Below, in pieces: positions 1-57,046 of a DNA stretch of 64,000 bases. Position numbers and translations under genes: made by a program. The notes below the pieces were generated by a model. It searched no databases. It was not told where the DNA came from and worked only from the letters and a program-made list of their open reading frames with translations. The stretch is from the NCBI GenBank assembly GCA_030704615.1, contig CM060733.1, forward strand, positions 33,852,001-33,916,000. Reading direction: 5' to 3'. Origin of the DNA: Takakia lepidozioides (lineage: Eukaryota; Plantae; Bryophyta). How positions within the stretch are numbered: position 1 is the first letter of the stretch; each line of letters starts with the position of its first letter.

Positions 1-3000
1 TAAGATGACCCCTCATAGAGAACCAAGCCTGCCATATTGATCTCCAAGCTTGTGAGCCCGAAAGAGGCACGGAGTTTGAGGAGCCTCCCTGCACAACCCA
101 TCTCAGGGAAGGAGGTCAAATTGAGGAAGGAGCTGGACGAGCCTTGAGGAGATGACCAAACCAGGAGACTCCATGGTGAAAGAGAATGAGTGAACACCGT
201 TGGGATCCACTTGGCTAGAATGGCCGCAATCTGTGATTTAGGGTCTATAATACCAAGGCCACCATTACTTTTTTTTTGGGTCAACTGCTTCCAGCTCACA
301 TGCGCTCTACGAGTCTGGCTAGGAGAGGAGGCCCCCCAAATGAAGTTCCGCATCATAGCTTTCATCTTTTTTATGAAGGCCTCGCTTGGCAACCAAACTG
401 AAGAGCCAAACCAGCTAGAAGCCAACACAACTTGGTTAACAATAATAGCTTTGCCCACTATAGAGAGGTGTGCCGAGCACCGGTAGGCTAGCTTCTTCTT
501 GAGGCTTGCCAGGATACCTTCAGCACGCAGAGCGTCAGAAAGGTCATGCCCAACCAAATGACCCAAGAGAACATGCGATTGGCCTTCCTGCAACCAAGAA
601 AGACCGAGGGCTCCCCCCCAGGGGGCTGTATGGGCAGCCATCGTGGAGTCCTTTATCTTGGATAAAATCCCTTTAGACTTACTCCAGTTTATATTCAGAC
701 CCGAAGCAGCACAAAATTGTGACAGAGCGAGCAGGGCCCGATCCACATTAGCCATAGTGTTGTTATCAATTAACAAGGAAGTATCATCAGCATATAGTGA
801 GGATTTTATACTGTAATTTGGGATAGATAGGTGCTGGATTTTAAGCCCCACCACATCTGGCCTGATGTGTAGGAGATGGCTGAGGCCATCTGCAACAATA
901 ATAAACAGAAAGGGAGATAGCGGGTACCCCTGTCTCACCGAGCGGAAAAGAGGGAAGGACCTTGAGATGGATCCATTAACCAACACCTTACTAGATGCTG
1001 ATTGAAGAAGAATGGTAATCCATTTGAGGAAGTTGCACGTTATACCACAATTTTGAATCGCCCCCAGCAGATAGGACCACTCAATATCGAAGGCTTTCTC
1101 GAAATCCAGAATTAGCATCGCTAATGGCTGGTTAGCTTCGAAAGCAGAGTGAAGAGCTTCATGAGCAAGCAAGGTGTTATCCAATATCATACGGTCCTTT
1201 AAGAACATTGTCTGCTCAGGTCTGATGAGCTTGTAGAGAAGCAGTTGAATCCTTAGGGCCAAGGCCTTAGCTATAATTTTGTAGACTGCATTTAGCAAGG
1301 TTATCGGTCTATAGTTGGAGATGGAATCACGGTCCCCCTTTTTGTGTATAAGAGTAATCACCCCTTGGCTAATCTGAGAAGGCATAATGCCTTTGAGAAG
1401 AATGTCTTCAGCAAAAGCTGTAAAATCATCCCCACACACTGACCAGATTGCCTGGAAAAGCTCCACTGGTAACCCATCTAACCCCGGCGATTTATACGAG
1501 GCGAGCTTTGACAACGCATCTGAGAGCTCGTTTGATGTGAAAGGGGCCGACTATCTCACCAGCTCTGATTCAGACACAATTGGAATGTAAGAAGAAAGCA
1601 CAGAGCTTCGGGAAGCCAAATCCTGCGGGGATGCAGTACGTGCTCCAAACAAGGCAGTGAAATGCCAGGCAACCAGGGAGGACATCTGCTTTGGGTTGGT
1701 GACCAGCAGCCCCTGGGCATTATTCAGGGATGCAATGGATGTAGCATCACGGCGTTGCCTAGCTTTAAGAAAAAAATATCTTGACATTTTCTCACCCTTC
1801 ATAGACCAATTGATGCCTGCTTCCTTCTCAAGTTCTCCTCCTTTGCATGAAGCAACTCTGCCAAGTTCCTTTTGGCTAAGTGAAAGGAGTCCCAGGTTTG
1901 GTTGTAGGCCCATCCCAACTCAATCACTTTCTGACACTGAGCTAGGCATTTGGTGAGAGCCTTTTCTTGCCTATTCCTTCCCATAGCATGTTGTTTCGAG
2001 ATTTCCTGCCCCACTCTTTTAACAACTTCCATTTTCTTCAAGAATCTGATCGTAGGGGAGGTAAAACCCAATCCAGCAAAAATCCAGGTCGATTTTATCA
2101 AGTCCAGGTACTGGGGGATGGCCAAGATGGAGGGGTTCAGCTTAAAGAAACCACACCCCTTGGAATGAGCACCTGGCAAGGAGAAGGAAACAGTAATCGC
2201 TGCATGATCAAAACCTGGCAGAATGGGCCCTAAAGCTGCAGGCTTCGCCCAAAACAAGGGAGTGGGAGAGCAGTAAATCCGATCCAGGTGGGCTATGCAG
2301 AGGTCTGGGGTTTACGGTTGTTTGACCAAGTAAAACGTAACCCATCTTCGAAAGAGGTGAAAGGCTCAGACAGACCCACCACAAAGCAAAGAGAATCCCA
2401 GACCTCTGACTCTTCAAGAGACAAAGTGTGTGAAGCTGTTCCAAATCGATCTTCTATACGCTCCACCATGTTCATGTCACCAGCAAAAATCCAATTAACA
2501 ACATCAGGACAATCCAAGATTTTAAGTCTCAGAAAAGACCATAATTCAATTCTTTCCTCAACGGAGTTGGGAGCATAAATGCTCACAAAAGCGCACCCTC
2601 GAAGGGCTGAATTGGAAGAAGCAAAAGCAACCTGAATTCTCCCTTGCATCCAAGCTTCAACCCTAATGAATAATGAAATCAAAGCTGGTGAAATCAGAAT
2701 AGTAGTTCCACCTCTAGAGTCTGCTATCGAAGGGTTCCACCAGGCAGCATTGCTAGGCCAAAAAGCGTTGCCTAATGCCTGGATTTTCGCTGCATTTAGT
2801 TTGTGCTCTTGTAAAAAGATGATCTGGTTAGAGTTCGTAAAGGTGGCCGCCCACTGTTGAAGACGGCAACGTTTAGGCAAAGAGGCTCCAGATCCAATGC
2901 CTCTGATATTCCACGAGGTAAGGCCAAAATTCATGGAGGAAAAGCTTGCAAGCCCATGGCATAACCACGAATTGATGGCTTGGAGAAAATTGGGAGGACA

Positions 3001-3529
3001 TGATGATCTTTGAGGATGGGCAAATGTGGCAATACTCTGAAGGACAAGGCTTGAGTTGGATGCTCCGAGCAGTAGGTGCAGGCCAGACCCCCCCTCCAGA
3101 CAGCAATTCGAAACACCTGGGGTGAACTGGAACCTCCATTGCAGCATGACTCATGACTGAGACAAACGGACAGGCCTCCCCAAGAGAAGAACTCAGCAGA
3201 GTAACTGGATAGCAAGAAAGGAAAGAACTGAACAGAGAAGTCAAGCACCACAGCTCTAGGGCAGAATCTCCAAGAGAAAGTGTAGATCCATAGCAAAAAC
3301 CCACTATAACCAATGGTCAAGCTGAAATTCAGCAGGGCAGGCTGATTAAGACTCACCGGTGGAGGCGATGGGATCAGCAGGTCAACAGGAGCCATTTCTT
3401 TCTCCCCCTTCTCTCCCTCCTTTACATTGAAGACCACCAAACCATTGCTAGATCTAGGGACATCCTCAGCCGAGGCCAGAACCTTGACCTTCTCTGTTGC
3501 CATAAGCAGTTTCTTCCCTACCGAGTAAA
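1..3529 (-). mobile_element. Degenerate L1-clade LINE: end of ORF1 plus ORF2 (AP endonuclease and RT); runs off the left edge, 5' part interrupted by element E2
   Basis: Endonuclease motifs SWNIRG, FLQEHK, SIYAPN, AGDMN and FDH in ORFs 2293-3147 and 1799-2257. RT motifs NYRPITLLN, DFEKAFD, RQGYPLSP and YADD (~783-794). Several frameshifts and stops. Confidence 0.93.
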
Positions 3530-5936
3530 TGTGATGTCGTGCACCTAAGCATCGTGCCACAACATACATCGCTGTCCACCACACAATCTAAGCACACAAT
3601 CCTAGAAAACTATACCACAATCGCCCCCCTAGCCGGTGATTAGGTCCCTCTAACACCAGATAGCTGACGAATATCCATCCCAATAAGATTATCGTTTGTT
3701 CATCAATCGCCCAAGTCCCACTATCTGAAGTCAATAGATCAAGAGGTCGGGTACAAAAGTAGCCCCATCGTTACTCGCCTTCCTGCAATCCATGGCTTCA
3801 GTATCATCATGCTCGCTCGTGCATGGATTACGACTCAACCCATCTGCATCCCGATTGACTATACCGGCTCGATGCACCACCTGGAAGTCGTACTCTTGAA
3901 GCATAAGTGCCCACCGTGCAAGCTTCCCTGTAAGCTTGTTTGACTCCATCAACCACTTCAATGGTTGGTGATCCGTGACAAGGGTGAAAAGATTGTCATA
4001 GAGGTAGCATCTAAAATGTGCCACTGCCCAAACTGCAGCTAGACACTTCATAGGAACTATACTTCGCCTCGGCATCATTGTTCGAACGGCTAGTATATGC
4101 CACTACGAACTCTCTTCCCTCATCATCCACTTGTGTGAACACTGCTCCAATCCCCAACATACTCCAATCCGTATGTAGCTGGAAAGACCGCCCCCCAATA
4201 GGTCGCCTCAGAATAGGCGCAGAAGTCAATCGAGCCTTGAGTTCCTCAAAGACTTCATCCTGCTTCTCCTCCCACTGCCACTCCTGACCCACCTTGGTCA
4301 ACTTGGTAAGAGCCTTTGCAATGCTGCTAAATCCCTTGACAAACCGTCGATAGTAGTTTGCCAACCCCATGAAAGCACGAACTCTGCTAACATCAATGGG
4401 GTGTGGAATGCGTGCAATGGCCTCCACCTTCGTCTTTTGAACACCCAATCCTCCAGGGTATATCATGTGGCCCAAATACTCAATCTGGTTGTAGAAGAAC
4501 TTGCATTTCCCAGGGTGCAATTTCAACCCATGCACTCTCAAGCGCTCAAACAACACCTAAAGGTGTCTCTCATGCTCCTCAACCGTAGCACTAAAGACGA
4601 TGATGTCATCAATGTAGCACCGGGCAAAGTCTAGCCCCGCGAGAATCCTATCCATGACCCTCTGAAACTCTGCAGGAGAATTCTTCAAAACGTAGGAACC
4701 GCCATTGGTACAAGCAATCCTTCACATATTGGTCAATCCCCCAGAATGTTGTCTTCTGCTTGTCAGCCTCTTATGATTGGCAATTGGTGGTGACCGGATC
4801 GCAAGTCCAATGTGCTAAACACATTTGCATGCCCAATGGCATCAAAGATCTGCTCTGGAGTTGGCATGGCATATCTATCGAACTTAGTCTGACAGTTCAC
4901 AGGACGGTAGTCCCCACACATCCTCCTTTCTGTCCAATTGCCATAGATATCCTTCTTAGCTGGCATCACCATTGTCGAGGCATACTCCCCGCCTGACAAC
5001 TCCACCAATCCAGCTTCGAACAACTCCATAGTCCGTGACTGGATCAAAGATCTCTCCATATCACTATACCTGTAGGGCCTTTGAAAAATTGGTGTGTCAC
5101 TTGCTAAATCAATACGAATCTCCTAGCCCTTCAAACTCCCCAAATCCTTCAAACCGAATGCAAAGCAATTTCTATAAGCCCTTAGAAATCGCTGGATCCT
5201 CCGCCTCTCTCCTCCGGTGACTGTAGGTCCAACATCTGGTTCCCAGTTGTCCTCAGTGACTGCAACCTTGGGTATACCAGGCTTGGAAGTAGGAGATGCA
5301 TCCTTTGGTTGCTAGATAGCAACCTCTTGGGCTTTATCCGCCCACCCTGACCGTGGCGTATCCTCCACTTGCTCCGCCATAGTCACCTTGAGAACATCCT
5401 CTGGGGAAGAAACGTTCTCAACCTCTTCAAAAACATTGGCCACCTTGGCCTCCAACTGATCCTCAGTATATGGCTCTCCTCACTCCTCATATTGCTGCTT
5501 GAGAGATCCAATGACTCTCTCTTTCCGCATCTCATCCCACATCTGCCATGGGTGTTTGCACCCCATGATCCTGTGCTCGCCCTCACTCACTGCCTCCACC
5601 GTCCCGGTTGGCAGGGAGGATCACTATTCAATGGGAGTGCAGAAGTAGCCACCACTGTCTGCAACCTCTGTTGCTCAGCCATGCACAAGCCAATGACCCA
5701 TGTCAAGCAATTTAGATCCATTGCTTGACCCAACATCTGACGTCGTGATGCCTCTGGTAGAGCTGGCACGGTTGTAGTGCCCGTAGCAAACCCCATTGCC
5801 CGCTCTCGCTCATCCGCACTAGGCTCCCCCAATTGTTGTAGCGTGTTGTCCCAGATCAACCCTGGACCCATTGTCTCGAAAAGCATGAGACGAGGGAAAA
5901 CTCATGAGTGTAGGCAAGGCCGCACGTGGTTGCCCC
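3530..5936 (-). mobile_element. E2 3' half: C-terminal DNMT, TAG-CAA-CCA, RT (YIDD intact), RNase H, integrase deleted, PPT and short terminal segment
   Basis: ORFs 5587-5886 (ERERAMGF..LGQAMD), 4763-5059 (MCGDYRPVN, LDLRSG), YIDD at 4605-4616, 4011-4556 and 3731-4078 (TDWS, TDHQPL, ADGLSR). Sequence jumps at ~3795 to the 3' UTR. PPT AGGGGGGCGAT at ~3620-3630. Colinear with E1. Confidence 0.93.
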
Positions 5937-5993
5937 TGTCAAGTTAAATAAACACAGTGTGAAACTAACTAGAATAAAACTAGTTATTTATAT

Positions 5994-6053
5994 TTAACAC
6001 TTGGATTTAGTTCAAGTGTTAAGTCAGGTGTCAAGTTTGAGCTTGACACCTGA
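5994..6053. repeat. Two adjacent perfect hairpins near the E1 left end
   Basis: TTAACACTTG/CAAGTGTTAA (5994-6022) and TCAGGTGTCAAG/CTTGACACCTGA (6024-6053). The second stem contains the element's terminal TGTCAAG. Confidence 0.85.
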
Positions 6054-6299
6054 ACCATCTTATCTTCACGAGAGCGTCAGTCGCGCAACTCATCTCTCTC
6101 GAGTTGAGCCTGCGCGACCGAGCTCCTTCACGCTTTAGAAGCTGAGTATGCTTATGAAGGGAGGATAGGTTGTTGTGGGGTGGAGTCCCCATAGCTTGGG
6201 GTGCCCCTGGCTCGACTACTATTTTAAAGAGTGATGGTGTTGGTTTTCATGTTTCTTGTGTGAACAGTGTGTCCTTTAACTTTCTTGTCACTCGAGAGA

Positions 6300-6621
6300 G
6301 ATGAACAAAGATATGTCAACACAGTGAAACTGAAAGATGGGCGGTCATTGTCTACAGACATTGTGGTAGTGGGCGTAGGCGCGAGACCACTCATAGCCCT
6401 TTTGAAGGAGCAGTTGGCTGTTGAGAAGAGAGGTTTCAAGGTTGATGGGTTCTTCAAAACAAGTGCTCCAGATGTCTATGCCGTTGGTGATGTTGCCACC
6501 CTCCCCCTGAAGCTGTTCGGTGACCTGCGCAGAGTAGAGTACGTTGATCATGCTTGCAAATCAGCTATTCAAGCTGTTCAGGCTATCAAGGCAGCTGAGG
6601 AAGGGAAGACTATTGCTGAAG
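6300..6621 (+). pseudogene. MDAR: Captured internal fragment of monodehydroascorbate reductase, intronless
   Basis: VKLKDGRSLSTDIVVVGVGARPL...FFKTSAPDVYAVGDVA..PLKLFGDLRRVEYVDHACKSAIQAVQAIKAAEEG matches plant MDAR. Both termini are missing and it lies inside E1. Confidence 0.9.
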
Positions 6622-7469
6622 GTAGGCTGGACCTGCTGTTTGGGTCTAAGAAGAAACACGAGGTTGATGTCCTTGACGGTCCAGGTCGGGAATGATTATC
6701 GTTGCATACCTCTCTGTTGGCAGTGGCCGCCTCTCGGTTTCACCAATGGCCACGCCAAGTTGACAGTGGAATGCTGCTGGTTTGGATTCGTGACATTCAT
6801 TTCCAGGTGACAGGCGTGAGAGAGAGAGAGAGATACAGACACATGGCTGCGCAGAGCTTGCATGCCCGTACCTCGCCTCTCCGTCTTGGGGTCGCCTGCT
6901 CCTCGCTGCTTTCATGTGATGTAAGGCTCTTGTTTCTGTCCAAAATGCGGAGAAGATGAGATTGTGGTGAAGCCTGATATATCAGATCGAGCAAATTGTG
7001 TTTGGTTTGGCCAAGAGCTTGTCTTGATAAGGCAAGACTTCAGAAAATTGTGCGCATGTGCTGGCAAAGATGGCCACTGTAGACCATGCCCAGGGGAAAG
7101 CTCTGGGTAGAACAGGCCAAGGGTCCAAATTTGAAGATACCTGTACACGTACTGAAAGTAGACCAGGCCGCCTTCAAATGGACGACTCTTTATTTGAGAA
7201 TGGTCATGCATATGACAACAGAAAGTTGCATCAACAGGGCTGTTGCCGGTGAGACAGGTGCTTGTGGAGTAGTTGTCCAGAGCCTCTGTGGGGGTGAATG
7301 TATTGGAATGGGACGATGCTGTGCTGCCTAGCTTTCCCAGTTGGGCTTCCGTTAGTTGCTGGTTCAACCACCTGCACCCAATACCAGGAACACCTCTATC
7401 AAGACTCTTGGGCGTTCAAAATTGCACTGGCAAGTTTTCTTGAGCAGCATTTGTGGGGTTCTTTCAATC

Positions 7470-7767
7470 TGTCCTCCTTTTTCTCTTCCTCCTTGGAGGC
7501 AGCTTCTATTGCAGCCCCACTTCCGGCAGCGGGTGCACTGCTCACAGCCACAGTGCCGCCACCTCCTGATCCAACATTGATGATGAGGTCATCAACACTT
7601 CTCTTCTCCAATAGCTTGGCGAACAGAGCGGGCCAGTAAGACTCAACTTGCACATTGGCGGCCTTCACTAGCGTTGCAATCTTGTCGGCAGTGATGGGAA
7701 TGTCGTCATCATGTAAAATCAGAGCAGCGTAAGTGCAGGCAAGCTCGCTGTGCGCCACGGCGGCCAT
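7470..7767 (-). pseudogene. RPP1: Captured 60S acidic ribosomal protein P1 copy, intronless, C-terminus lost
   Basis: [52 protein letters not shown]. The conserved EESDDDMGFxLFD tail is replaced by unrelated sequence after EEEKKED. Antisense within E1. Confidence 0.92.
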
Positions 7768-8271
7768 CGCTTCTCAACAAGACTCCGCACTCGAGAATCC
7801 AGACAAAGAGAATCCAGAGAGCAGGGGCTGCTAAGCGTGTGCCTGCGAAGGAGGATCCCAGCACTGCAACCTCTGTTGGTAGATTGCAATTCCACCATTT
7901 CGGGCACTTGTAGGGCATGGTATTTTTACCTTGTTGGGAACCTGCAGTAAATCGCAAAAAAAAAACGTGGGAACAGTTTTTAATGGCGAGAACGTTTTGG
8001 TGTTAAAAAAAAAAAAAACCTTTTGATCTAATTTAAATGATTTAGAGCCTAATTGGTCATAACTTTGTCAAATGGACTCCGTTTGACTCAGTTTTTGGGG
8101 GGATAGCTGCAGAAAGGGGAAATCTACCTATCTACTTATTTTTGTTTTCGGGACTCTGCTAAAAATCTATGGAATTTTTAGAGTGTGAGTGTGCCATGAA
8201 AGATCCACAATTCTGTTTCTAGAATCTGTTCTGGTCTATATGAGAGACAAATCTGTGGATGTCCTTCTTGT

Positions 8272-9021
8272 ATGGCTGGGGGAAATGAGGACGTAATTGA
8301 AGGGCATGTCTCTTCTCTTAGCCTGTGCACCCAAGGGGACAAGATTTATGTCTCTCAAGAAACTCAGACTGATTTGAGTGGAGAACAGTTGGACGAGTTG
8401 ATTGCATACTGGGAGTCAGGCATTAGCAGTAGACAACAAACTGCTGTAGTTGGCGTTGAGGGCCTCAATGTTGCTTTGGACAGTCAGAACTCTGTTGGAG
8501 CCAGCAGTTCTGCACCTGTAAGTGAAATACCAAAGTGGGTGAAAGCTAGGCTTGGAACACAGCCAAAGACAGCCCCGGGGACCAAGGTGTTCAGCCACAA
8601 GGCTGTGGTGTACTGGAGCAGAGGAGCAGGAGCTACACAAGTTTGTGCAATCAGACATGGTTGCAGCCGGACACACTCTGCACAAGGCAACCATGAGCGG
8701 GGGTTCATTAACAATGACAAGTTTGTTTTGCTTGAGGGAGATGCAGTCATTCGCAATGAGGACACCCGCAACCGTCTCAAAGCTTTCGAGTTGAGAGACT
8801 GTCAGACCCTACCTTTATTTTCTTTAGCGTTCAGTGAGCGGGAGATAGGGGAGTATTGCTTTGTCTCTACCTGGCAGAAAGAGGAGGAAGGTTGGTTAGA
8901 GCGAGCTACTGTAGCTTGGGACAAGGTTAGTGGCAGGTTTCTGGACATAGATATACCTCCTACACCTTACCATCATGCAGAGCGAGGCACTTTGAGAGAA
9001 GTCTGGCAGTTGATAGCATAG
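8272..9021 (+). CDS. Intact 249-aa orphan ORF upstream of gag in E1
   Basis: ATG-to-TAG open frame with protein-like composition. No recognised domain, and not seen in the corresponding part of E2. Confidence 0.55.
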   Translation: MAGGNEDVIEGHVSSLSLCTQGDKIYVSQETQTDLSGEQLDELIAYWESGISSRQQTAVVGVEGLNVALDSQNSVGASSSAPVSEIPKWVKARLGTQPKTAPGTKVFSHKAVVYWSRGAGATQVCAIRHGCSRTHSAQGNHERGFINNDKFVLLEGDAVIRNEDTRNRLKAFELRDCQTLPLFSLAFSEREIGEYCFVSTWQKEEEGWLERATVAWDKVSGRFLDIDIPPTPYHHAERGTLREVWQLIA

Positions 9022-9094
9022 ATCAGGATTAGATCTTGTTTGGTCGAGCTTCTATTCTTCCCCTCCATCTCTGTACTATTCTCATTACCTTGTA

Positions 9095-9500
9095 CTTGTA
9101 GTTGCCAAAGCCTCTCTTGGTGGAGGCCAGTCAGTCCGGGGTTGTGGGCTCGGATATTCTGCAGGATCAGCATTGCAGCTGGATTTTGGTGTGGGGGTGT
9201 TGATGTTTTGATTTCTTGTGTTTGGATCCCCCCCAACACCTGCATGCTTGACTGTGCGCCATGTTGGTTTTGTGTGGGCTTGCTTTCATAGGGATTAGGC
9301 CGGATTTGATCACCGGTCAATCCTAGAGTATGCTGTCGGTGGTGAGGCTGGAGTGATGACCAGCAAGACCACCAGTGTTTCTTCTATGGTGAGACTGGGT
9401 TGATGACCAGCCAACCATAGGAGTTCTTGCGGTGGATGCAGGTGCAGGTGCCCTGAGCCACTGGGATATGACCCTTAAACTGCAACAGGTGCCCACCCGT
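9095..9500 (+). promoter_or_regulatory. Conserved non-coding 5' leader shared by E1 and E2
   Basis: Homologous to the reverse complement of ~19390-19800. Core GATTTGATCACCGGTCAATCCTAGAG is identical in both, followed by a duplicated TGGTGAGRCTGG..TGATGACCA motif. Confidence 0.8.
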
Positions 9501-9569
9501 GTCACCATTAGAAATAGTACTAGAGCCTTATAGTGTCACGTGGGGGAGGTGCACATTGTGAGTGTCATC

Positions 9570-11690
9570 ATGGAGTTACCCAGGGGTTCTGAGGGGAGTA
9601 CGGCTACAGGCAGTAGCAGTGAGAGTGGGTTCACCAGAGGAGGTGTTCGTTTCAGACCACCTTCACCTCCACCCTCAACTAGTGCAGAGTCAGACACAGA
9701 CTCGGAGGCTTTATCAACAGGTGTGCAGTTTCATTCGCCATTGTTGTGGGACGACATGGAGGAGATGTATGGAGCTACCAAGGGGCCTCATAGGTACTCT
9801 GGAGCTGTGGGCACAATTGAGCTGGATGACTTTATCCAGGAGTTCGACAGCTGGTGTGATTTGCAGCAGATGCGCAATCCACAGCTGTTCACCCCATTCC
9901 TGGCGTGGAAGGGACTGTTCCAGCATTTGGAAGGCCCGCCTATGGACAATTACCACGAGTTCAGGCGAGGACATGACGCAGAGATTGAGGAGTGGAGGAT
10001 GTATTGGTCATCTGACTACGTCTTCATTACTCGAGGCACGACGTGACCAGTAGCTGCATCAGTACCAATATCTCCCACTGCCAGCACTAGTAGTGGAACA
10101 AGTACTGCCGGTACTTCTGCAGGTGATACCAGTTCAAAAGGTGCTACTACTCCTCCTGCCACGACTACAACACATGTGCCTAGATTCAACCCGGTGGTGG
10201 AGTTCTTCCAGGAGTTGCGGAGGAACTACCAAGGTGTACGGACAGAGAAGTTGCGAAGTTTGCAAGACTTCCAGCGCAAACCCAGTGAGAGCTTGCGAGA
10301 GGCCTACACTCGTATGAGGCGCTTGATAAGTGTGACCCAAGGGGTTACTGAAGCTCAGGCAATCCAGTTCTGGTATGGAATTTTGGACAAGGAGCTCAGG
10401 AGAAGGGTGCGGGATGCAACCCTGTTACAAGCAGCCCAACCCACATTAGCAGATGTGTTTCTGCTGGCTGAGCGGATTGAGCTCAACATGGTGGAGGAGC
10501 GAGTTGTTACCATTGGATTTGGCAAGGACATGCCTGTACGAGGCGCAGCTGCCAGCCCACAGGCACAAGGGACTGCCCAACAGCGTGGTCAGGGGGGCAA
10601 GGTTTCCCAACCCAAGTTCCATGGAGCTTACATGTGACCTCAGGTGCAGAGGCCCGTGGCATCTTTTGCAGGCCAACAGCAACCAGGGGTGATATGTTGG
10701 ACATGTGGAGGACCCCATGTCAAGAGAGATTGCCCAAAGAGTGGCAGAAGGCCGGCACAAGCACAGCCTGCACAGTTGCAGTGTGGGCATTGTGGCAAGT
10801 ATGGGCATGGAGATGCCCAGTGTTATCCTGAGTTGCGCCCAGACCAGTTCCAAGGGAACAATGGTGGCTGGGGGCAAGGTGGACCAGCCCAGAGAGGACG
10901 AGGTGGTCGGGCACGAGGTGCAGGCCAAGGGCAAGCTCAACATGGCCAAGGACGAGGAGGTCAGGGTGTTGACCAAGGCATGGCCAACCGGCTTCAGCAG
11001 CTAGAGCAGAGGCTCGCTGCCATGGCTACAGCTCAGGTGGTACCGGCTCCCAGGCGGGATGGTCCACCTCCTGCTCCTGAGGGAGGAGATATGGGAGGCA
11101 TGGGATTCATGTGCGGATCAGCACTACCACTAGTGCAGGTGGAGTCTGCTGCAGCTGTGACTCGAGGAGCAGCACGAGTTCCTGAGCCACGAGGTGCAGA
11201 GGTGGAATTGGATCCACGGCGTGGGAAGGCAAGCCGTCAGGCGAGGCTTCCTCAGTCATTCACATTGGCGGAGACAGTGTCGACGTCATCCATGGCACCT
11301 TGTTCTCGCCCGACTGTTACCAAGGCGGAGGTTACTATGCCCATTGGGGAGAGCTACACGTGCAGCACTGACACCTACTACCAAGGCTAGTGCAGCCGGT
11401 GTGTTATTGGGGGCAGCCACCTCTGTGTGTCAAGCCCCACTGTTCTCGGCAACCATGATTGCGACGCCGGGGGTAAGACCAGCTGTAGTGTTCAGACTAG
11501 CAGCAACACTCTGCGAGAGTGGGGAGATCACTTCATCTTCTGCGGAGTTACTGGAAGGTGTAGTGGCAGAGGGATCCTCGGATTTGAGGGTCAAGACTGC
11601 CACGACTACACCATGGCAAGCTGCAGCTGCCAGGTTGACGGAGCTGCCAGCTAGGCCAGCCTTTGAGCGCGCCATGGTGACACCTGGAGT
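9570..11690 (+). pseudogene. gag: gag with capsid-like region and two zinc knuckles
   Basis: One frame across stops at 10044 and 10635. FQRKPSESLREAYTRM (major-homology-like), CWTCGGPHVKRDC and CGHCGKYGHGDAQC. Frameshift at ~11340. Start is uncertain because E2 has ACG at the equivalent codon. Confidence 0.88.
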
Positions 11691-12130
11691 TGTCTTGTTA
11701 GACAACCAGGGAAGCATTTTCACTTTGAGTGGACCGGCAAGCAAGAAGTACCAGCCACTGCGGGTCTTGTTGGACTCAGGAGCTCAGCCACTAATGTTGG
11801 GCAGAGCTGCTATTGCAGGTTTGGGCCTCATGGAGGCGGATATGGAGCCTTGTCCTTTCCAGATATAGACATCTCTGGGAGGATCAGAGTAGGCTCGGGG
11901 CATGACACGGCGTGAGTTGGCCATTGGACTACAACCAGATCATCCTGTAGATGGCTCAGTGATGCGAGCCAAGGCCATTGTGACAGACGCGGTCTCTTAC
12001 GATGTCCTTGTTGGTGGGGCAGTGTTATATCCCATAGGCTTCACCCTGGACTTTTGGGAGGAGTCAGCATCCTACAGGCCTGGATGGTAGTCAGGGGATG
12101 GTCGTCGTGCACAGCTCCCTGTGACATTCA
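11691..12130 (+). pseudogene. Aspartic protease domain
   Basis: VLLDSGAQPLML (~11764-11799) and YDVLVG. In-frame TAG stops at 11866, 11890 and 12088. Confidence 0.85.
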
Positions 12131-12474
12131 TTGGGGGTATTGCGGCTGCCCAGCGGGGCAAGATGCCAACGTTAGCCGCCTTTACAGCTGCAGTTAGTTG
12201 GCTTGGAGAGTTGCTGGAAGGCAATGCCCATGCAGAGGATGTGCCACCTCCAGCAGAGCAGGATGACATGCATGGTACGGCGGAGTTGCCTGCCATGGTT
12301 GCTCACACTCCATTATGGGGTACGAGCAAGGATTTGCAGCATGCTACTGATGGACGGGTACAACAAGCCTGGGTAGAGGCCTTCGTACCGTCAGGAGAAG
12401 AGGAGAGTGCGGTAATTGCACCAGGACCACCTCAGTTGTCGCCATTGGACACCACACCTCTTGTGTGGCAGTCC

Positions 12475-13460
12475 CGGATGAAGGCATATGCATTCTGGAC
12501 TTGTTTGGCGGGATCAGCACTGGATTGGCTGCAGTACTGCAAGCAGGTGTACGACTTCGACGTTACCTGTATGTGGAGAGGGATGAGACTGCACGACACG
12601 TCTCACTGCGCCATGTTGCTCAGTTGGTACAGCAGTACCCTGATTTGTTGCCAGTGTCTGCAGTTCGTGGATACCAACAAGCCTTGCCAGCAGACATTTT
12701 GTTGCTGGGGGCGCAGGATTTGGAGCGGGTTGGCTCCATTGATCTGGTAGTGGCAGGTTGGCCCTGCCAAGGGCATTCATCAGCCGGGCATGGCAATGGA
12801 TTGTGAGACTCGAGGACGGGTCTGTTTTGGGAGATGGTGCGGGTTTTGCGCCACTTGCAGCTTCATCAAGCTGTATCTCCAGTATACATCTTGGAGAATG
12901 TGCCACTGATGGGCGATTCTCGGGCCAAGGTGATGGCAAGTGTGCATCAAGTCCGGTCGTGGCTTGGGTCAGCAGTGTTGCTGGATGCAGCAACAGTGCG
13001 GTCATGGGCTCATCGTCCACGGCTATGGTGGACTAACTTGATGCCACCCGCACTGCTCAAGCGTGCATTTGATGGGGTGCAGCGGCCAGCACACCTCACA
13101 GTGGATAGCATTTTGGACACAGGGAGGCAATCTCAACGTGTGAGACACGACGACCGTTTGCCATTGGCAGTGGTCAACAGGGTGGGTCAACCACGAGCAG
13201 CATTACCTACACTGCTCAGCTTCCCAGGATCCCATGCTTTTCGGGATGGTGGACCTGGCCTCTTGTGGGATAGCCAGTTGCAACAATTAGTGGAGCCCAA
13301 TGCTGACGAGCGCGAGTGGGCAATGGGTTTTACCACTGGTACCACGGCGGTGCCATCTCTTTCTGAGGCATCACGTCGTCAGGTGTTGGGGCAAGCAATG
13401 GATCTCAATTGCTTGACCTGGATTATCAGCTTGGCTATGGCTGAGCAGCGCAGAGTACGG
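12475..13460 (+). pseudogene. DNMT3-like C5 cytosine DNA methyltransferase domain within the polyprotein
   Basis: Motif I LDLFGGI (12495), II YVERD, IV DLVVAGWPCQ (catalytic Cys 12765), VI ILENV (12894), VIII AHRPRLWWTNL (13008), IX/X ERE(W/R)AMGF..T..RRQVLGQAM. One TGA at 12804 and a frameshift at ~12470. Confidence 0.95.
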
Positions 13461-13733
13461 AGTACACTTCCCTTCATGGTCTCCTTGCCTACCGAGACGG
13501 TATAGGCAGCGAGTGGGGGCGAGCAGGTGAGGACCACGAGGTGCAGGCCGCATCCATGGCACACGTGGGAGGTGCTCGAGGTTCAGAAGGAGTTGGCAGC
13601 CAAGGTGGCGGTGATGGATCAGGTTGGGGATTTTTCTCGGGTTGAGGAGATCCTCAAGGATGGGATGACGGGGCATGATGAGACATTGTCACTGACAGAG
13701 GAGGTAGTGGTCACTGCTCAAGAGGTTGCAGCA

Positions 13734-13742
13734 TAGCAACCA
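13734..13742 (+). promoter_or_regulatory. Candidate programmed stop-codon readthrough signal UAG-CAA-CCA
   Basis: Matches UAG-CAR-YYA. Identical in E2 (minus strand, 5314-5306) although the adjacent codons differ. RT continues in frame. Confidence 0.65.
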
Positions 13743-16700
13743 CGAGACGCGTCTTCTACCTCTAAGCCTGCTGGACTCAAGGTTGCAGTCACGGAGGACA
13801 ACTGCGAGCCTGATGTTGGACCTATAGTCACCAGAGAAGAGAGACGACGTATACGGCGGTTCTTGAGGGCTTACAGGAACTGCTTTGCCTTCAGTTTGAA
13901 GGACTTAGGAGCACTGAAGGGTCAAGAGATTCGCATTGAATTGGCTACTGACACGCCAATCTTTCGGAGACCCTATAGATACAGTGACATGGAGAGGTCC
14001 TTGATTCAGATGAGAACTCAGGACCTTTGGGAGGCTGGTTTGGTGGAGCTATCTGGGGGAGAGTATGCTTCAGCCACAGTGATGCCAGCCAAGAAGGATG
14101 TCTATGGCAATTGGACGGAGAGACGTATGTGCGGTGATTACCGGCCTGTAAATCGTCAGACCAAGTCCGATAGGTATGCCATGCCGACACCAGAGGAGAT
14201 CTTTGATGCCATTGGGCATGCCAAAGTCTTTAGCACGTTGGATTTACGATCCGGATATCACCAGTTGCCGATCAAAGAGGCGGATAAGCAAAAGACGGCG
14301 TTCTGGGGGATCAATGAGCACAGGAAGGATTGTCTATACCAGTGGATTGTCTTACCATTTGGACTTAAAAAAATGCTCCTGTGTTATGGTGGAGGAGCAT
14401 GAGAGACACCTTCAGGTGGTATTTGAGCGCTTGAGGGCGCACGGATTGAAGTTACATCCGGGAAAGTGCAAGTTTTTCCACAACCAGATTGAGTATCTGG
14501 GTCACATGATATATCCTGGAGGATTGGGGGTACAGCACACTAAGGTAGAGTCCATTGCACAGATTCCACGCCCCACGGATGTGAGCCGAGTTCGAGCTTT
14601 CATGGGGTTAACAAACTATTATAGACGGTTTGTTAAGGGATTTAGTGCCATTGCAAAAGCTCTAACCAAGCTGACCAAGGTGGACCAGGAGTGGCAGTGG
14701 GAAGATGAGCAAGAACAAGCTTTTCAAGAGCTCAAGGCAAGGTTGACCTTGGCGCCCATCTTGAGACGACCTATCAGGGGGCGTCCTTTTCAGCTGCATA
14801 CAGATTGGAGCATGTTGGGGCTTGGAGCGGTGCTCACACATGTGGATGATGAGGGAAGAGAGTTCGTAGTGGCTTATGCTAGCCGCTCGAACAACGCGGC
14901 AGAGTCTAAGTATAGCTCATATGAAGGAGAATGCTTAGCTGCAGTGTGGGCCATGGCACACTTCAGGTGCTATCTATACGGCAATCTCTTCACCCTTGTC
15001 ACGGATCACCAACCACTCAAGTGGTTGATGGAGTCAAACAAGCTTACGGGGAAGCTTGCACGGTGGGCACTCATCCTTCAAGAGTATGACTTTCAGGTTG
15101 TGCATCGACCGGGTTTGGTCAATCGCAATGCAGATGGGTTGAGGCGCAATCCATGCACGAGCCAGCAGGATGACACTGGAGCTTGGTGGCATGGTGAGAC
15201 GGACGAGGAGATGGTGCCCGGATGGCATGCATCTGCATTTCTGTGTATCTTGGCAGCGGAAGGCCAGGTTGGACCTGCAACAGGGATGATTGTAGATCAA
15301 GTGTCTGAGGACCCTGAGGCCAGCAATGAGCAAGGTGGCGCCAAAGATATACATGAGGATTCAGCTGTGTTGGACTATCTTCGCACTGGAGACACGGCAG
15401 CCACTGTGACTGCCAATGAGAGGGATCGGATCCTACAACGAGCCAAGAGGTTCAAGTGGGAGGGGACACACCTGCTCAGAATGTGGGAGGATGGTCGAGT
15501 GAGGATTATGCCTCACCCAACACAGCGGGCACGGTTAGTGCGGCATGCCCATGAGGAGTTGGGGCATTTTGGGGTGCGACGCACTCATAGTCTACTGCAA
15601 GGGCAGTATTGGTGGCGTGGTATGCACACAGAGGTGCAACAATTTGTGGCTAGGTGCATGGTGTGTGACAGGGTGCGTGCTTCATTCAATGCCCCTACTC
15701 CACAATTGCACCCTCTTCCGATCATGGGATTGGGCTACAGGTGGAGTCTTGACTTCGCGGGGCCGTTGCCACTGACCATGCACAACAACAAGTACGTGTT
15801 GGTGATGGTGGAGCACTTCTCCAAGTGGATCGAGTTGGTTCCGTTGTCTGATAAGGCTAGTGAGGGAGCTGCGTATGCATTCTTGGATTGTGTACTTAGC
15901 CGCTTTGGTGCTCTAGCTGAGGTACTCACGGACCAAGGGAGAGAGTTCTTGGGGGAGTTTCAGGCTTTGCGTGATAAGGCCTTGATAGACCACCGCACCA
16001 CTTCTCGGGATCATCCTGAGGCCGATGGCTTGGCAGAGAGAGTTGTTCAGACAGTAAAGAGGGGTTTGAGCAAGTATGGCTTGCAGAAGGGACACCTAGG
16101 AGATTGGGACCTTCAGTTACCCTGGTTAGCCATGGGCTACAGGTTCAGCAAGGAAGCATCACTTGCCTCCTTCTCACCATACTTTCTTCTCTTTGGCCGA
16201 GAGCCGGATTTGCCTACATCCATTCGTAGAGAAGCTGCTACAGTTCTTAACCTCGACGATCCGGACATGTGGGCACGTGCATGTAATCAGCGTGCAGAGT
16301 TGTTCAAGAAAGTCATGCCCATGGCTTTCGAGAACCTTGCCATTGCACAACATCGTGATACGTTGAGGTATGCTACCATACGTGGTGGAGGCTATCGTCC
16401 TGGGGTTCGGAGATTCAATCCTGGTGACTATGTCTATCTGCAGCAGACTGCTCCTACGACCTTGGATGTGACTGCAGGACGTGTTATTTTGAGGGTTCGA
16501 GAGGTCTTGCCCTCAGGCGTCTTGATCTTGGAGGGTCGGGATGGCATAACTTGGAAGGACCATGTGCGTAATTGTGCGCCATGTCACCTTCCAAATGTCG
16601 ATGGCAGGATTGACCCAAACTTGACAGTGGTACCTACAGGCTTGAGGTGCATGTTGTGTGGGTCTGCTAGAGGGGCAGCCACCATGCTAGTATGTGATCG

Positions 16701-16791
16701 ATGCTCTAGAGGTTGGCATATGGGATGCTTGATCCCACCTCTTGAGATGGTTCCTGATGGGGATTGGTTATGTCCGCATTGCATTGAATAG
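13737..16791 (+). pseudogene. pol: pol: RT (YIDD segment deleted at ~14375), RNase H, integrase (HHCC, DDE), C-terminal PHD finger
   Basis: PYRYS, MCGDYRPVN, LDLRSGYHQ, PFGLK; LHTDWS, YASR, TDHQPL; HEELGH..CMVC; SLDFAG, TDQG, GLAER. PHD CMLC..CDRC..WHMGCL.PPL..VP.GDWLCPHC at 16648-16782. Frame is open from ~14390 to 16791. Confidence 0.95.
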
Positions 16792-17040
16792 TGGGAGTGG
16801 ATGCAACCATGGGAGGCTAACAAGAAATGTAAGGCCAAGCTACTAGGAGACCTTGAACACACGAGATTCTGGCTCAAGTTCACAGATTGCAAGATGACGA
16901 CTAACGATGGGGCTACTCTTGTACCCGGCCTCTTGGTCTCTAGAGTTTGAGTACAACAGGGACAGTGATAGAGGACTTAGTACGGTTGTGGCTATTACAT
17001 CTTGTAGCTATCTGGAGTTAGAGGGACCTATCCACCAGCT

Positions 17041-17136
17041 AGGGGGGCGATTGTGACAGACTACTTTATTGTGCATATATGTGTGGTGTGGTTTGGACAG
17101 CGATGTAGTTGTGTAGCGATATGTATGCGCACGACA
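17041..17136 (+). other. Polypurine tract plus 85-bp terminal segment (TGTG...GACA)
   Basis: AGGGGGGCGAT at 17041-17051, then TG at 17052. The segment is homologous to E2 3535-3619 and both lose similarity at GCACGACA. Confidence 0.8.
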
Positions 17137-19800
17137 CCCCACTCGATTGACCACCGCCAAAGGTGGACGATCATCATGTCGCATTCTCTGTGGTTGCCTC
17201 CCTTGGTCCAAAATGCCTCAACCGTGAGGTTGGGTGGTCGTTGAATGGAATCATAGGCTCTCTTGAGCAGCTCTAGTGGTGCAAGATTGGTCCACCACAA
17301 TCGAGGTCGATGCGCGCGTGACCACCGCTGCTGCATCCAATAGCACCACCAATCCAATCCAAGACCGCACCTGATGCATACTGGCCATAACCCTGGCCCG
17401 ATTATCTCCTATAAGAGGAACATTCTCCAAAATATAGCCTAGAGGTTGCACTTGCCTCGTCTGCAAGTCCCGCAATGCTCGCAACAAGCTGCACCTTGCT
17501 TTACAGCACCACCCACTGGCATTTCCCGAGCCATACCAACTCTCCCCAATGACACTTATGGCTCTGCCTTTGACACACTTGGGCGAGCGGGTGCCATCGA
17601 TGGCGTAGTTGGCACTGTCTCAACCAATGTAAAGAACTGTGGAAGCCTTGTCTGACAACTTGCTTCCCCCCTTTGTGGATCAAAACCCACATCCGCTCCT
17701 CTTGGCTCAGGAGCACTCATTGCTGCTCGAGTGACAGCAGCAGTAGAGTCTAATACATGCAATGGTCCTACAAGTGCGGCTCCCCACATGAAGCCCATAC
17801 CAATCTGGTCTTCCCTAGGCATATAAGGTTGTGCAGGTGGGGCCTGAACCTCAGGCCTTGGAGCTGGCGCAACATGAGTAGTGGCCATGGCAGCAAGACG
17901 TTGCTCTAGTTGGGCAAGTCTATTCACCATGCTTTGATCATGACCTTGATCCTGACCCTGTACTCCTTGGTCTGGGTTACGACCTCCACCACGACCTCTA
18001 CCTCCTCTCTGGACTACATTGCCTCGTCATCGGCCACCATTGTTCCTTTGGAGCAGGCCTTGCCGTAGCTCATGATGCAAGCCATAACAATGGGCCTTCT
18101 CATGCCCATACTTTCCACAATGCCCACACTGTAGTTGTGTAGGCTGTGCCTGTGCCGGCCCTTTGCCTCTCTCCGGGCAATCCTTCTTGAAATGGGGTCC
18201 TCCACAATCCCAACAAGTCACACCCGATTGTTGTTGGCCTGAGAATGAAGGAAGAGACCTCTGCATCTGAGATCCTCTCTGTCCTTCCCTCGGCTTCACC
18301 TGAGCCCCCTTGTTGCCTTGAACACGTTGGGATAGTGGTTGTTGTTGGCTAGGAGCCCCACTTCGTTGTGTCTCCTTGCCAAACCCCACCATAACCACTC
18401 GCTCCTCCACCATATTGAGCTCTATCTGCTCTGCCAGCAAAAACACATTTGCTAAGGTGGGTTGGTCCACTTGTAGGAGAGTTGCATCTCGCACCCTTCT
18501 TCTTAGCTCCTTGTCCAGGATCCCATACCAGAACTGGACTGCCTGAACTTCTGTAACCCTTTGGGTTACGTTTATCAAGCGTTTCATGCGAGTGTAAGCC
18601 TCCCTCAAACTCTCAGTAGGCTTGCGCTGGAACTCTTGTAAGCTCCGTAATTTCTCCGTCCTTATCCCCTGATAGTTTCTTCTCAACTCCTCGAAGAACT
18701 CCACAACTGGGTTAAAGGCAGGCACGGGTACTAGCGCTGCAGCAGGAGCTTGAGTGGATTTCCCAGCTCCACCTTTACTTGTCCCAATACTACTGCTTGC
18801 AGTTAGGGATGTTGGTGTAGCTGTTAGTGTCGCCGCTGCCCTTGTGCCTCTAGTGATGGAGATATAGTCAGGTGACCAATACTGTCATCACTCCTCAATC
18901 TCCACCTCATTTCCCCGCCTAAACTCATGGTAGTCATCCATAGGCGGCCCTTCAAGGTGCTGAAACAGCCCCTTCCACGCCATAAAAGGCGTAAACAGTT
19001 GTGGATTGTGCATTTGCTACAAATCACACCAACTATCAAACTCCTGTATGAAATCATCAAGCTCGATGGTGCCCACAGCTCCAGAGTACCGACGTGGCCC
19101 CTTTGTAGCTCCATACATTTCCTCCATCGTATCCCACAACAATGGTACGGAAATGGCTTGCACCCTCGACGAGAATCCTCCTGACTCCGAGTCTGAACTT
19201 TCCTCAGAAGACACTTAAGGTGAAGGTGGCCTAAACCACACACCTCGTCTTGTGTACCCACTAGTATCGCTGGTGCTCGTACCGGCACTCCCCTCAGCAA
19301 CTGGTGGCACCTCCGTGATGAAAACTCACAACCCAACCGGTTGTCAACCTGTCTCTAATCCCCACTTTCTACAAGGTAACCGGGTAGAGAACCTGTTGCG
19401 GCCTATGGCTTAGACTAGTACTATGTTCGTAACATAAACCTGCACCTGCACCTGCATCCACCGTAAGCACTCCTATGGTCTGCTGGTCATCAACCCAGCC
19501 TCACCATAAGATAACAATGATGGTCTGATTGGTCATCACCCCAGCCTCACCACCGACAGCACGCTCTAGGATTGACCGGTGATCAAATCTGGACCAACCT
19601 CCTATGAAAACAAACGCCCACACAAAGCTAACATGGCGCACAGTCAAACATGCAGGTATGGAGGGGATCCAAACACAAGAAAATCAAGACAGTAACTTCC
19701 CCACACCAAAAACACTCCACAGTGTCGCTCCTGCAATGACACCCCAGCCCAAACCCAGACTGACTCTTGCCTCCACCTATGGAAAGGTTTTGGCCTATGG
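17137..19800 (-). mobile_element. E2 5' half: leader, gag, internal deletion of PR and DNMT motifs I-V, then DNMT motifs VI-VIII
   Basis: gag ORFs 19017-19214, 18027-18725 (two zinc knuckles) and 17556-17930. Junction at ~17490 into YILENVPL and RAHRPRLWWTNL. Ends at the E1 insertion. Confidence 0.93.
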
Positions 19801-21526
19801 AGATGGTGAAAGACTATGGAGAAGAGAAACTAAAGCAATTCCTAACCCCAGAATGCTCTCATCCCACCACTCTCCCTCCTGTCTCTATCCACTCGCTTGT
19901 ATGGTCGTGGCAAGTATCCTTCAAATATCCCTCAATCAATCCTTCAAGAGCTCTTCAACATTGTCCACCAAAGCTCTTCGAAGGGTCCTCCAATACTCCT
20001 CCAAGGACCCCAAAGATCCTCCAAACACTCCTCCAAGGGCCCTCAAATATCTTCCAAACAATCCTCCGAAGGCCCTTAAATTTCACTAAGTCCTTTCAAT
20101 GTGGATACCTTAACAGAGGTATAGTTTGAGGTTGATAGGGTCCCTCATGTTGATGATATCTTTACAGAGGTATAGTCTGAAAATGAGGGTTCTGTTTGGT
20201 ATACTAACAGAGGTATAGTCTGAGCTGATTAGGGTCCACATATGGTGATACCTCAACAGAGGTATAGTCAAAGGGACAAGCTCCTGTTTGATATACTAAC
20301 AGAGGTATAGTCTGAGCATACACTACTAGGGTTTGTAACGAAGAGCTAGAATGCAAGTCCTTGACTTCTATGCTTCTACTCAAGCAAAAATATGGTCTCT
20401 AGGTGGTCATAAGAGACATCTTCTTGCTCTCTTCCACCCCAATGTGCAACCAAGAGTGGTCCAACTCAACTTGCAAGTCATTGTCCACCAAATCAATCCC
20501 CCTTCTAGTCCTTGGGATTTGATTGCAAACTACCATATCTCCATTGCCGAGCAATCATGCATTTGTTTCCTCATCACTTGACAATTGCTCCAAATCAACA
20601 CAAATTATCTCAATGTGTAGGAGCAATGCTTGTCACTTATAATAATGCTCCCAAGCAATCCGCCTTGGATCCCACTCTCACGCCATATGCCTCATTTGGG
20701 GTCTTGCACCGATCCATCATCCATGTGCTCCCCTTGGTCATTTGAATGCATGTTCCATGACCTCTTGGCCTATGTGTTGCTCTCCTTCATCATAACATGA
20801 ATCAACGCCTCTTCACTTCACACACAAATGGATCTCAAGGCCTTCACCTCTTGCTAGTTCAAGAGCTCCCCTTCTCAAACTTGAACTTACAAACTCAAGA
20901 GAGCATGTTCCACATATGCACCACTTACTTGGTCAACTATCCACCACAAAGCTCGCACGACCAAGAGCATGAATAACCAAGTATTGCCTCCCCCTTTTGT
21001 CACATAACATAGTTAGGGTGAAGCTATGCATACATTGAATGATGATTTCCCTTCAAGGATTTTCCACCATATGTTCTCCAAGCCCTTCCAAATGGCGCCC
21101 TAAACTTGGCTCCACACCACCATGATTGGAAGATTTCTTCATATGCTCCCTTTCAAAACCTCTTGAGCTTCTTAGTGCTCTCCAAGTGCTTGCCCTTGTT
21201 GTCTTCAAGCCCAAGTATATGTAGCTCCTTGGCTTCTCTTCCACAACATCCACACTTTCAACTTGCTTAACCCTAGCTTGACAGTAAAATGAGCACTAAC
21301 AAGCCTTTAGTCACTCTCCACAAGCCATGGCACACACCATTGACTCCATAATGCATACAAAGGATTCTCAAACCCTAGAATCCATGCTTCCACACACACA
21401 AGACTTCCTCCTTGCAATCCTTGCAAAATCTTGTGACTCAAGAGCTTTATTCTCAAGCTCTCCAACTCCTTGGTGCATGCAACACTCGAACACCTTTCAG
21501 CAACCCCTTGCAAGCCTTGTGATACA
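19801..21526. repeat. LTR-like non-coding repeat DNA, probably the 5' region of E2; right boundary unresolved (21283 or ~21526)
   Basis: Strand-biased, repeat-rich, no convincing coding frame. Includes short CTCC/TCCAA repeats (19980-20070) and the array at 20104-20316. Confidence 0.45.
20104..20316. repeat. Five copies of ACAGAGGTATAGT in a dimeric tandem array
   Basis: Copies start at 20113, 20164, 20207, 20256 and 20299 (spacing 51/43/49/43). Alternate spacers resemble each other. Confidence 0.9.
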
Positions 21527-22448
21527 AGAGCTAAATTCTCCTAGCTCGGTGGATGTGGTTGTGGGTTCAAACCACGGTCTGGTGTGTCATGAAGGTGTCC
21601 ACCTTTCAGCTGGAAGGCGGTGGTGAAGAGACACCATAATTTACGCTCCCTCGGGGAGGCGTCTATATATATATATATATCCGCTAAGTACATGATATAC
21701 ATCCAGTCACTCACACAAAGGAAACCCAAGGGCCGCCCCAATTTTACAAGTTACTTCTCAATCCAAGTACCATCGTTGCATTGACCACAATTTCCATTCC
21801 AACTGCCATTTCTGACTAGGCACTGCATATGATCATGCAAATGTTTCTACTATCTGAAAGGCGGCTTCCGTATCAATCAGGCCTGAATTCCACACCTAGG
21901 CACCAACTGACAACCTCAGTGAATGCATGCTGGCTTTACCCTATTCCACCCGCAATGAGCAGACATACCCATCCAATACACTTGCAGTGCACAGCCCAAC
22001 TGGGCAAAAAATGACAGAGCTGCCCTCAGTATGTGCAAAGCAATACAGTCTAGGAAATCAAGCACAGCCAAGGGCTACTCATCTTGCGATGCTACTCCTA
22101 ACTTACAAGCCTTCAGCAGATGTGCACACTACGAGTACAGAGTTGGCTGTGCGTAAGCCCTGGTGAATACTTAATGGAGCTGGCACTGATCCTGGTCCTT
22201 CCCGGTCTAAAGCAGAGCTAATTCCTTGTCCTACAATACAGCAAAAGTGGCGGCGTTACAGACCCTCATAACTCGGTTACTCCAGACCATGATTTGCTAG
22301 CCAATATGGGCCGGGAAGAAATTTTGAAAGATGCCGCAAAGTTGTTGTTGTAATCCTCCAACCAATATGAGGTGGAAAATTCAGATTGGTGAAACACTTG
22401 AGTGTAAAGTTTTTGGTTGAAGGGTTACAATACCCAAATGTCTATATA

Positions 22449-57043: not shown

Positions 57044-57046
57044 CTG

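Follow-up and report, generated by a model that had tools for sequence, protein, structure and literature searches.

The PAT and Ngaro retrotransposons carry split direct repeats in the order A-coding-B-A-B and integrate by means of a tyrosine recombinase. The same order is given for DIRS elements by de Mendoza et al. (2018; PMC5890265), who, in the legend to their Fig. 4c, describe KnitGypsy-Dnmt3 of Klebsormidium nitens as combining a DIRS-like repeat arrangement with Gypsy domains. In the accessible text of that paper there is no mention of a mechanism, of a palindrome or a mode of priming, of the length of the duplication or of a short form; streptophyte Gypsy-DNMT3 elements are mentioned in one line of a 2026 preprint (10.64898/2026.05.21.726589). 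The element considered here, E1, occupies positions 5937-17136 (plus strand) of a 64,000-nucleotide stretch of Takakia lepidozioides DNA (GenBank assembly GCA_030704615.1, contig CM060733.1, positions 33,852,001 to 33,916,000), hereafter the window. E1 is a short form of a Gypsy family whose integrase likely cuts a palindrome inside the long terminal repeat (LTR), probably on circular or end-joined DNA. The split layout was previously noted in that one 2018 figure legend, and no paper on its mechanism was found; nor was any account of an internal integrase site, in a literature search that did not extend to Repbase, Dfam or subscription journals, so that its absence from print is unproven.

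E1 resembles KnitGypsy-Dnmt3 in having a Gypsy coding region with a Dnmt3-like domain, and the A-coding-B-A-B layout was observed in 19 related insertions, E1 itself showing the short order A-coding-B. The likeness is one of layout and domains. K. nitens proteins match E1 pol at 39-54%, none of them tied to the named element, and no K. nitens name appeared among the matches of the methyltransferase search. The methyltransferase piece of E1 is 78% identical over 108 aa to P0125, a protein whose 25 PDB matches were all DNMT3A/B/C. In contrast to KnitGypsy-Dnmt3, the E1 lineage extends to liverworts and mosses (Marchantia, Calypogeia, Riccia and Sphagnum). With PAT and Ngaro the E1 family shares the order of the repeats, whereas it differs from them in its DDE integrase, TG...CA ends, polypurine tract (PPT) and 4-bp target duplication.

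E1 reads CCCC-TGTCAAG...GCGCACGACA-CCCC. It has inserted into another member of its family, E2, which lies on the minus strand. When E1 and one CCCC were removed, the interrupted E2 frame read RPPLAVVNRVGQPRAALPTLMSFP, in register with E1's own RLPLAVVNRVGQPRAALPTLLSFP; thus, the duplication is exactly 4 bp, in agreement with the CCCC boundaries proposed in a first-pass annotation of the window. Copies in the same species were viewed through contigs of public runs (X1, X3, X5 and X6 among them). In three runs 5932 was joined to 17137, with four letters ambiguous, in contigs that possibly represent other E2-type copies and not an empty allele. The segment following the PPT, noted at first as 85 bp and unrepeated at the 5' end, measures 86 bp (17051-17136). 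Sequence comparison within the window gave no match for it at the 5' end of E1, its only match being the 3' end of E2 (72%, E 4e-11). The E2 segment is also 86 bp and ends with the same GCACGACA, as expected from the earlier placing of both ends at the same letters, 85-90 bp past the PPT. The two elements had also been described as unrelated upstream of their leader, and similarity between them indeed begins only at 9104, from where it runs onward.

The domain order of E1 (gag, protease, reverse transcriptase, RNase H and integrase) is that of Ty3/Gypsy elements, as are its DDE integrase, its TG...CA ends and a target duplication within the 4-6 bp range. A predicted self-priming site (6290-6304) follows the 5' repeat, and a PPT (17041-17050) precedes the 3' repeat. 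The integrase keeps its D, D and E motifs; the coding frames are interrupted by stops and frameshifts. Paired LTRs are missing from the integrated ends, with A on the left and B on the right, and the long relatives end B-GC-A-B. Judged from its sequence features, E1 behaves as a self-priming Gypsy element, yet it does not pass as one with paired LTRs.

Loose contig ends running past 17136 mostly continued into GC-TGTCAAG (65 contigs in X1, agreement 0.44; 5 in X6, agreement 0.65), and one X6 contig carried the end of B plus a G directly before 5936. The natural junction of the E1 ends is GACA-GC-TGTC and not GACATGTC, the palindrome obtained in the first-pass annotation by joining the ends, where the 2-bp GC spacer was missed. 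Since B is joined to A through GC in same-species contigs, the A and B of E1 belong to one family. A one-off chimera was one of the two interpretations considered at first. A chimera made from two unrelated LTR families, or a misassembly, would be in keeping with the host-derived pieces behind A in E1 and with the unrelated region upstream in E2. However, the junction contigs remove this reading for the E1 ends, 15 distinct related insertions share E1's ending, and an X3 contig bridges A and the captured piece (6245-6456). Chimera or misassembly is, in our opinion, hardly credible. The other initial interpretation, a family with non-canonical termini and perhaps a circular intermediate, finds support in the same-species junction and in related insertions, of which 34 are distinct, although the long form had not been foreseen. 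E1 is a real, cleanly inserted retrotransposon, and the split ends are a feature of the whole family.

The relatives studied were the best 80 of 574 confirmed stretches from a metagenome scan plus 7 loci from a genome scan (87 loci). By their 3' ends, 45 loci could be classed; the other 42 ended too early, were interrupted or collapsed, or were too distant. The long form, PPT-B1-NN-A2-B2-flank, was found at 28 loci (19 distinct insertions, by flank), and the short form of E1 and E2, PPT-B1-flank, at 17 loci (15 distinct insertions). The full order of the long form is A1-priming site-coding-PPT-B1-GC-A2-B2, and in three long copies A1 was also visible upstream, 84-92% identical to A2. It had been suggested that copies be collected and their termini and duplications mapped: all the integrated ends seen terminate at TGTCA or GACA, where the 2-bp spacer is missing, and the duplication is 4 bp. 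Among nine copies with both ends, two of them (L066 and L033) with ends corrected by eye, the duplication was exact in four, had one mismatch in three and two mismatches in one, and was missing in one. Of 18 copies, 8 have GC as the B1-A2 spacer; the remaining 10 have AC, GT or AT, all of them transitions from GC. The palindrome also follows the PPT in L047, L083 and L086, relatives whose protein identity is only 43-48%. The anatomy of this split-repeat family is well supported, and we hold it to be very probably correct.

The named relatives were from Calypogeia, Riccia and Marchantia (64-76% for pol), and also from Sphagnum, Klebsormidium and Closterium; on these matches alone the host would probably be taken for a liverwort. 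A scan of viral contigs rendered no relative. Seven loci (L081 to L087) were eukaryote-type contigs of the E1 family within records titled bacterial or archaeal genomes, probably due to binning contamination.

In the long copies A2 meets B2 exactly where the priming site and the PPT would begin and end, respectively, yet neither element is present at the join. It was flush in 8 of 15 cases and altered in 7, by the first one or two bases of the priming site (L080 and L041), a PPT remnant within an insertion (L003) or deletions (L061 and L066), whereas the PPT-B1 boundary was constant. The join looks like a 2-LTR circle junction, as end-joining of the linear product would leave. B1 and B2 did not form separate lineages; they were closer within a copy (0.936 versus 0.92; 0.914 versus 0.87-0.89) and, in L082, identical over 106 bp, as would be expected if B2 were remade from B1 each cycle, although this is a modest test. 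An order resembling a tandem or a circle (PPT-B-NN-A-priming site) was also read in L081, L005, L083 and L047. The circular contig of L081 is probably an artefact: its two ends share 127 nt, as is usual when an assembly loops through a pair of identical copies of A. None of the four loci was therefore counted as evidence of circles.

These data bear on a DIRS/Ngaro-like replication, in which the RNA would carry B2, an internal B-A copy would template circle closure, and B2 and the A-B join would be inherited via RNA. The order of the repeats is indeed of the DIRS type (PMC5890265, Fig. 4c legend), but the A-B join varies between copies, B1 and B2 lack separate lineages, and the PPT and the self-priming site lie exactly at the boundaries of B and A. 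Furthermore, no Pfam match to a tyrosine recombinase was obtained in the 12 E1 frames scanned, a DDE integrase (rve) and a 4-bp duplication being found instead. This kind of replication is very improbable.

A different origin of the short form would be the insertion of E1 as a long form, with later loss of GC-A2-B2 by recombination between B1 and B2, as in solo-LTR formation. Such an event would yield an identical sequence with the duplication kept. L002 (about 361-775) contains a degenerate solo A-B unit that has neither a PPT nor a priming site, as would be expected of this family's equivalent of a solo LTR, so repeat-mediated loss may occur. Nevertheless, the short copies are not older: in family 1 they were not significantly more diverged than the long ones (0.106 versus 0.099; p 0.28, 7 versus 6), and in family 2 they were less diverged (0.095 versus 0.109; p 0.044, 7 versus 9) and had kept more CpG (p 0.021), in four uncorrected tests with small n from which L050 was left out. 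Besides, B is only 86 bp in E1. Recombinational loss seems an unlikely origin for E1.

The first-pass annotation found no canonical tRNA primer-binding site, and this absence is explained by the predicted self-priming site next to A; its focus on 9480-9570 was misplaced, as the predicted site is 6290-6304. This stretch is the perfect 15-nt complement of 6090-6104, a match reached by 0 of 1,000 shuffles, which points to self-priming of the Tf1 type in E1. In the relatives the self-primer and the priming site differ in sequence yet remain complementary, with 9 of the 12 tested at 24 or fewer of 1,000 shuffles (perfect matches only). Complementary pairs of 11-16 nt were observed in four of five further loci without B2. 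Five relatives with a self-primer match also have a TATA box, 23-37 bases ahead of the primer. Tf1 primes itself with its first 11 bases (PMC7175516), and the Tcn1 clade occurs in mosses (PMC6317226). As in those elements, the priming site of E1 would be complementary to the first bases of the RNA. In Tf1 and Tcn1 the LTRs are paired in the ordinary way and the integrase acts at their ends, whereas the E1 family carries a PHD finger and a methyltransferase and has its site inside the LTR.

The limits of an LTR are set by reverse transcription, at the PPT on one side and at the priming site on the other. Given that these two sites bound the unit B-GC-A, the integrase site lies within the reverse-transcribed LTR. 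In the mechanism that we propose, the RNA would start inside A1 and prime its own reverse transcription, rendering an ordinary linear DNA flanked on both sides by B-GC-A as its LTR. The linear ends would then be joined A to B into a 2-LTR circle, or a 1-LTR circle would form. Instead of trimming linear ends, as retroviral integrases do, the integrase would cut each strand of GACA-GC-TGTC behind its CA, the stagger leaving 2-nt 5' overhangs, and the product would be inserted. Such a cut, with overhangs shaped like processed retroviral ends, would account for the loss of the spacer from the integrated ends. Opening of the 2-LTR circle at the left palindrome would yield the long form, while opening of a 1-LTR circle, or the use of both palindromes, would yield the short form, E1 being the one-LTR product. 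The short form, without a 3' copy of A, would not replicate alone and would need a partner RNA; the long A-coding-B-GC-A-B is likely the form able to replicate.

A precedent comes from foamy virus, whose integrase cuts a CA-AT-TG 2-LTR circle junction in vitro (Delelis et al., 2005; PMC1180852). The substrate is likewise a palindromic CA-NN-TG with a 2-bp spacer that is cut to processed ends, such cutting being presumed for the E1 family. In foamy virus, by contrast, the palindrome exists only upon ligation of the LTR ends and the provirus has ordinary LTRs, whereas in the E1 family it is built into the LTR itself and the integrated copies are permuted.

Similar products could arise with no free circle, if integrase cut the left palindrome of the linear DNA and inserted the A1 end together with the released B end, host end-joining later fusing A2 to B. 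The same flush yet variable A2-B2 join would be predicted, and the substrate would remain linear as in retroviruses (PMC11054761). On the other hand, two pieces of DNA would have to be held through integration and a chromosomal double-strand break repaired, yet 8 of the 15 joins are flush, and the missing permuted form would be left unexplained as well. We consider this route distinctly unlikely.

Several observations weigh against cutting of a circular or end-joined DNA at the internal palindrome. The sequence left by the opening of a circle would also result if the ends were joined after integration, and linear DNA, not a circle, is the established retroviral precursor (PMC11054761). From a symmetric 2-LTR circle, the permuted A-B-GC-A-coding-B and the long form should arise equally often, but B preceded the 5' A in none of 13 loci (11 distinct insertions, 6 of them with a short 3' end), nor in E1; a bias to the left palindrome is therefore needed, and the A end adjoining the priming site is seemingly always the one used. 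The circle, the RNA start and the integrase activity are here deduced from DNA sequence. In addition, nearly half of the loci (42 of 87) could not be classed, a clear duplication was missing in two of the nine two-ended copies, and a copy's own B2 ranked closest to its B1 in just 2 of 7 cases in one set and 4 of 8 in the other, each set holding one insertion twice. As for priming, the self-primer match was not significant in 3 of the 12 relatives tested, and no TATA match was found before the predicted self-primer of E1.

The features of E1 and E2 are collected in Table 1.

Table 1. Features of E1 and E2 in the window
Feature	Position	Strand	Basis
Left target-site duplication, CCCC	5933-5936		Joint 5932-17137; four letters fit either side
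Right target-site duplication, CCCC	17137-17140		Paired with left CCCC
354-bp repeat A, beginning with TGTCA and closing with CA; predicted promoter and R/U5 part of LTR	5937-6290	+	Multi-copy in same species
Predicted self-primer, likely RNA 5' end	6090-6104	+	15-nt perfect complement of 6290-6304
Predicted self-priming primer-binding site, directly after A	6290-6304	+	Complementarity; X6 family contigs stop at 6304
Captured host sequence	6305-7964		Pfam matches, contig coverage
Intronless monodehydroascorbate-reductase-like piece	to 6619	+	Pfam PF07992
70-bp multi-copy insert within captured cassette	6671-6740		Other low-copy pieces around
60S acidic ribosomal P1 piece	7472-7827	-	Pfam PF00428
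Family 5' internal region	7965-9570	+	High depth; leader in common with E2
273-aa frame of no Pfam family, within multi-copy 5' internal region	8200-9018	+	Frame scan
Leader common to E1 and E2	9104-9451	+	Sequence comparison
gag (two CCHC knuckles) and protease (LLDSGAQ), with stops and frameshifts	9571-11865	+	PF03732 below cut-off; protease motif read in translation
Dnmt3-like cytosine methyltransferase domain, broken	12351-13502	+	PF00145, E 0.003
Reverse transcriptase, RNase H, DDE integrase, C-terminal PHD finger	13737-16791	+	RVT_1, RT_RNaseH, Integrase_H2C2, rve and PHD above Pfam cut-off
PPT, AGGGGGGCGA	17041-17050	+	Same place before B in relatives
86-bp repeat B, closing with CACGACA; forms right end of short form	17051-17136	+	Matches E2 end; 76-85% to B of relatives
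E2 3' part: short-form end, reverse transcriptase and RNase H, integrase deleted	3535-5932	-	Sequence comparison
E2 PPT	3630-3621	-	Part of short-form end
E2 repeat B, 86 bp, ends at same GCACGACA as E1	3620-3535	-	Post-PPT segment
E2 5' part: leader, gag, methyltransferase piece	17141-19794	-	About 72% identical to E1

Repeat A is highly repeated in the species, with a summed X1 contig depth above 160,000 over 5880-6284 versus 170-550 over 6771-7823. Most of 6305-7900 is low-copy and host-derived, and high depth resumes from about 7990. E1 is a gene-capturing copy. The host cDNA-like pieces (6292-7964) begin exactly at the priming site, which the reductase mRNA resembles there. An X5 contig of 1,628 nt spans 6292-6619 with 8 differences. 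The cassette-bearing variant is not unique to E1, as copies of the cassette elsewhere lack 6671-6740 (joint observed in four of four runs). For the 273-aa frame at 8200-9018, neither a Pfam match nor a match among the 87 related loci was obtained.

Two short motifs recur among E1 and its relatives. One, AACGATGGGGC...CACCCGGCC, lies at about 16895-16935, between the pol stop and the PPT, and was found in E1, E2 and about 29 related loci. The other is a 30-nt leader motif (9291-9328 in the window, the E2 leader, and 8501-8530 in L081), 97% identical between E1 and the distant L081; it folds as a hairpin whose loop contains the self-complementary ACCGGT. One might guess at a dimerisation or packaging signal.

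The true 5' end of E2 was not found by a duplication scan, a TGTCA scan, tblastx or an inverted-repeat search. A candidate at 21283 (TGTCAAG after a 4-mer with one mismatch) was rejected, since the stretch around it looks unrelated and no self-primer matches it. Upstream of the E2 leader (19918-21660) there are short tandem repeats (19918-20317) and a purine-rich stretch resembling the remnant of another element. Two broken long interspersed nuclear elements with endonuclease and reverse transcriptase frames are present on the minus strand, at 1-3534 and about 53700-57130, and the 3' end of E2 abuts the first. A 150-bp repeat, in two copies 76% identical (60206-60353 and 62297-62443), lies around a hairpin-like poly(G)/poly(C) at 62096-62255; the TGTC-starting repeats at 60251 and 62340 were considered as members of the E1 family and proved unrelated to E1. 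Rfam gave nothing on positions 3000-23000, nor did ARAGORN on the whole window.

The structure of the E1 family is what routine opening of circles by integrase would leave in genomes. The circle was proposed as the integration precursor in 1984 and later dropped in favour of linear DNA (PMC11054761), and the question of a circular substrate was reopened in vitro by the foamy-virus work (PMC1180852). The annotated genes of Marchantia polymorpha include relatives whose open frames are long, so that the question becomes testable in a model plant. Such elements would be missed, or given wrong bounds, by LTR finders that search for paired LTRs and a duplication. Neumann et al. (PMC6317226) required paired LTRs with a duplication, a combination that elements of the E1 type lack; PMC10952607, in its accessible part, contains nothing on the E1 family. 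Because LTR finders require paired LTRs flanked by a duplication, this high-copy family is probably under-annotated in bryophyte genomes.

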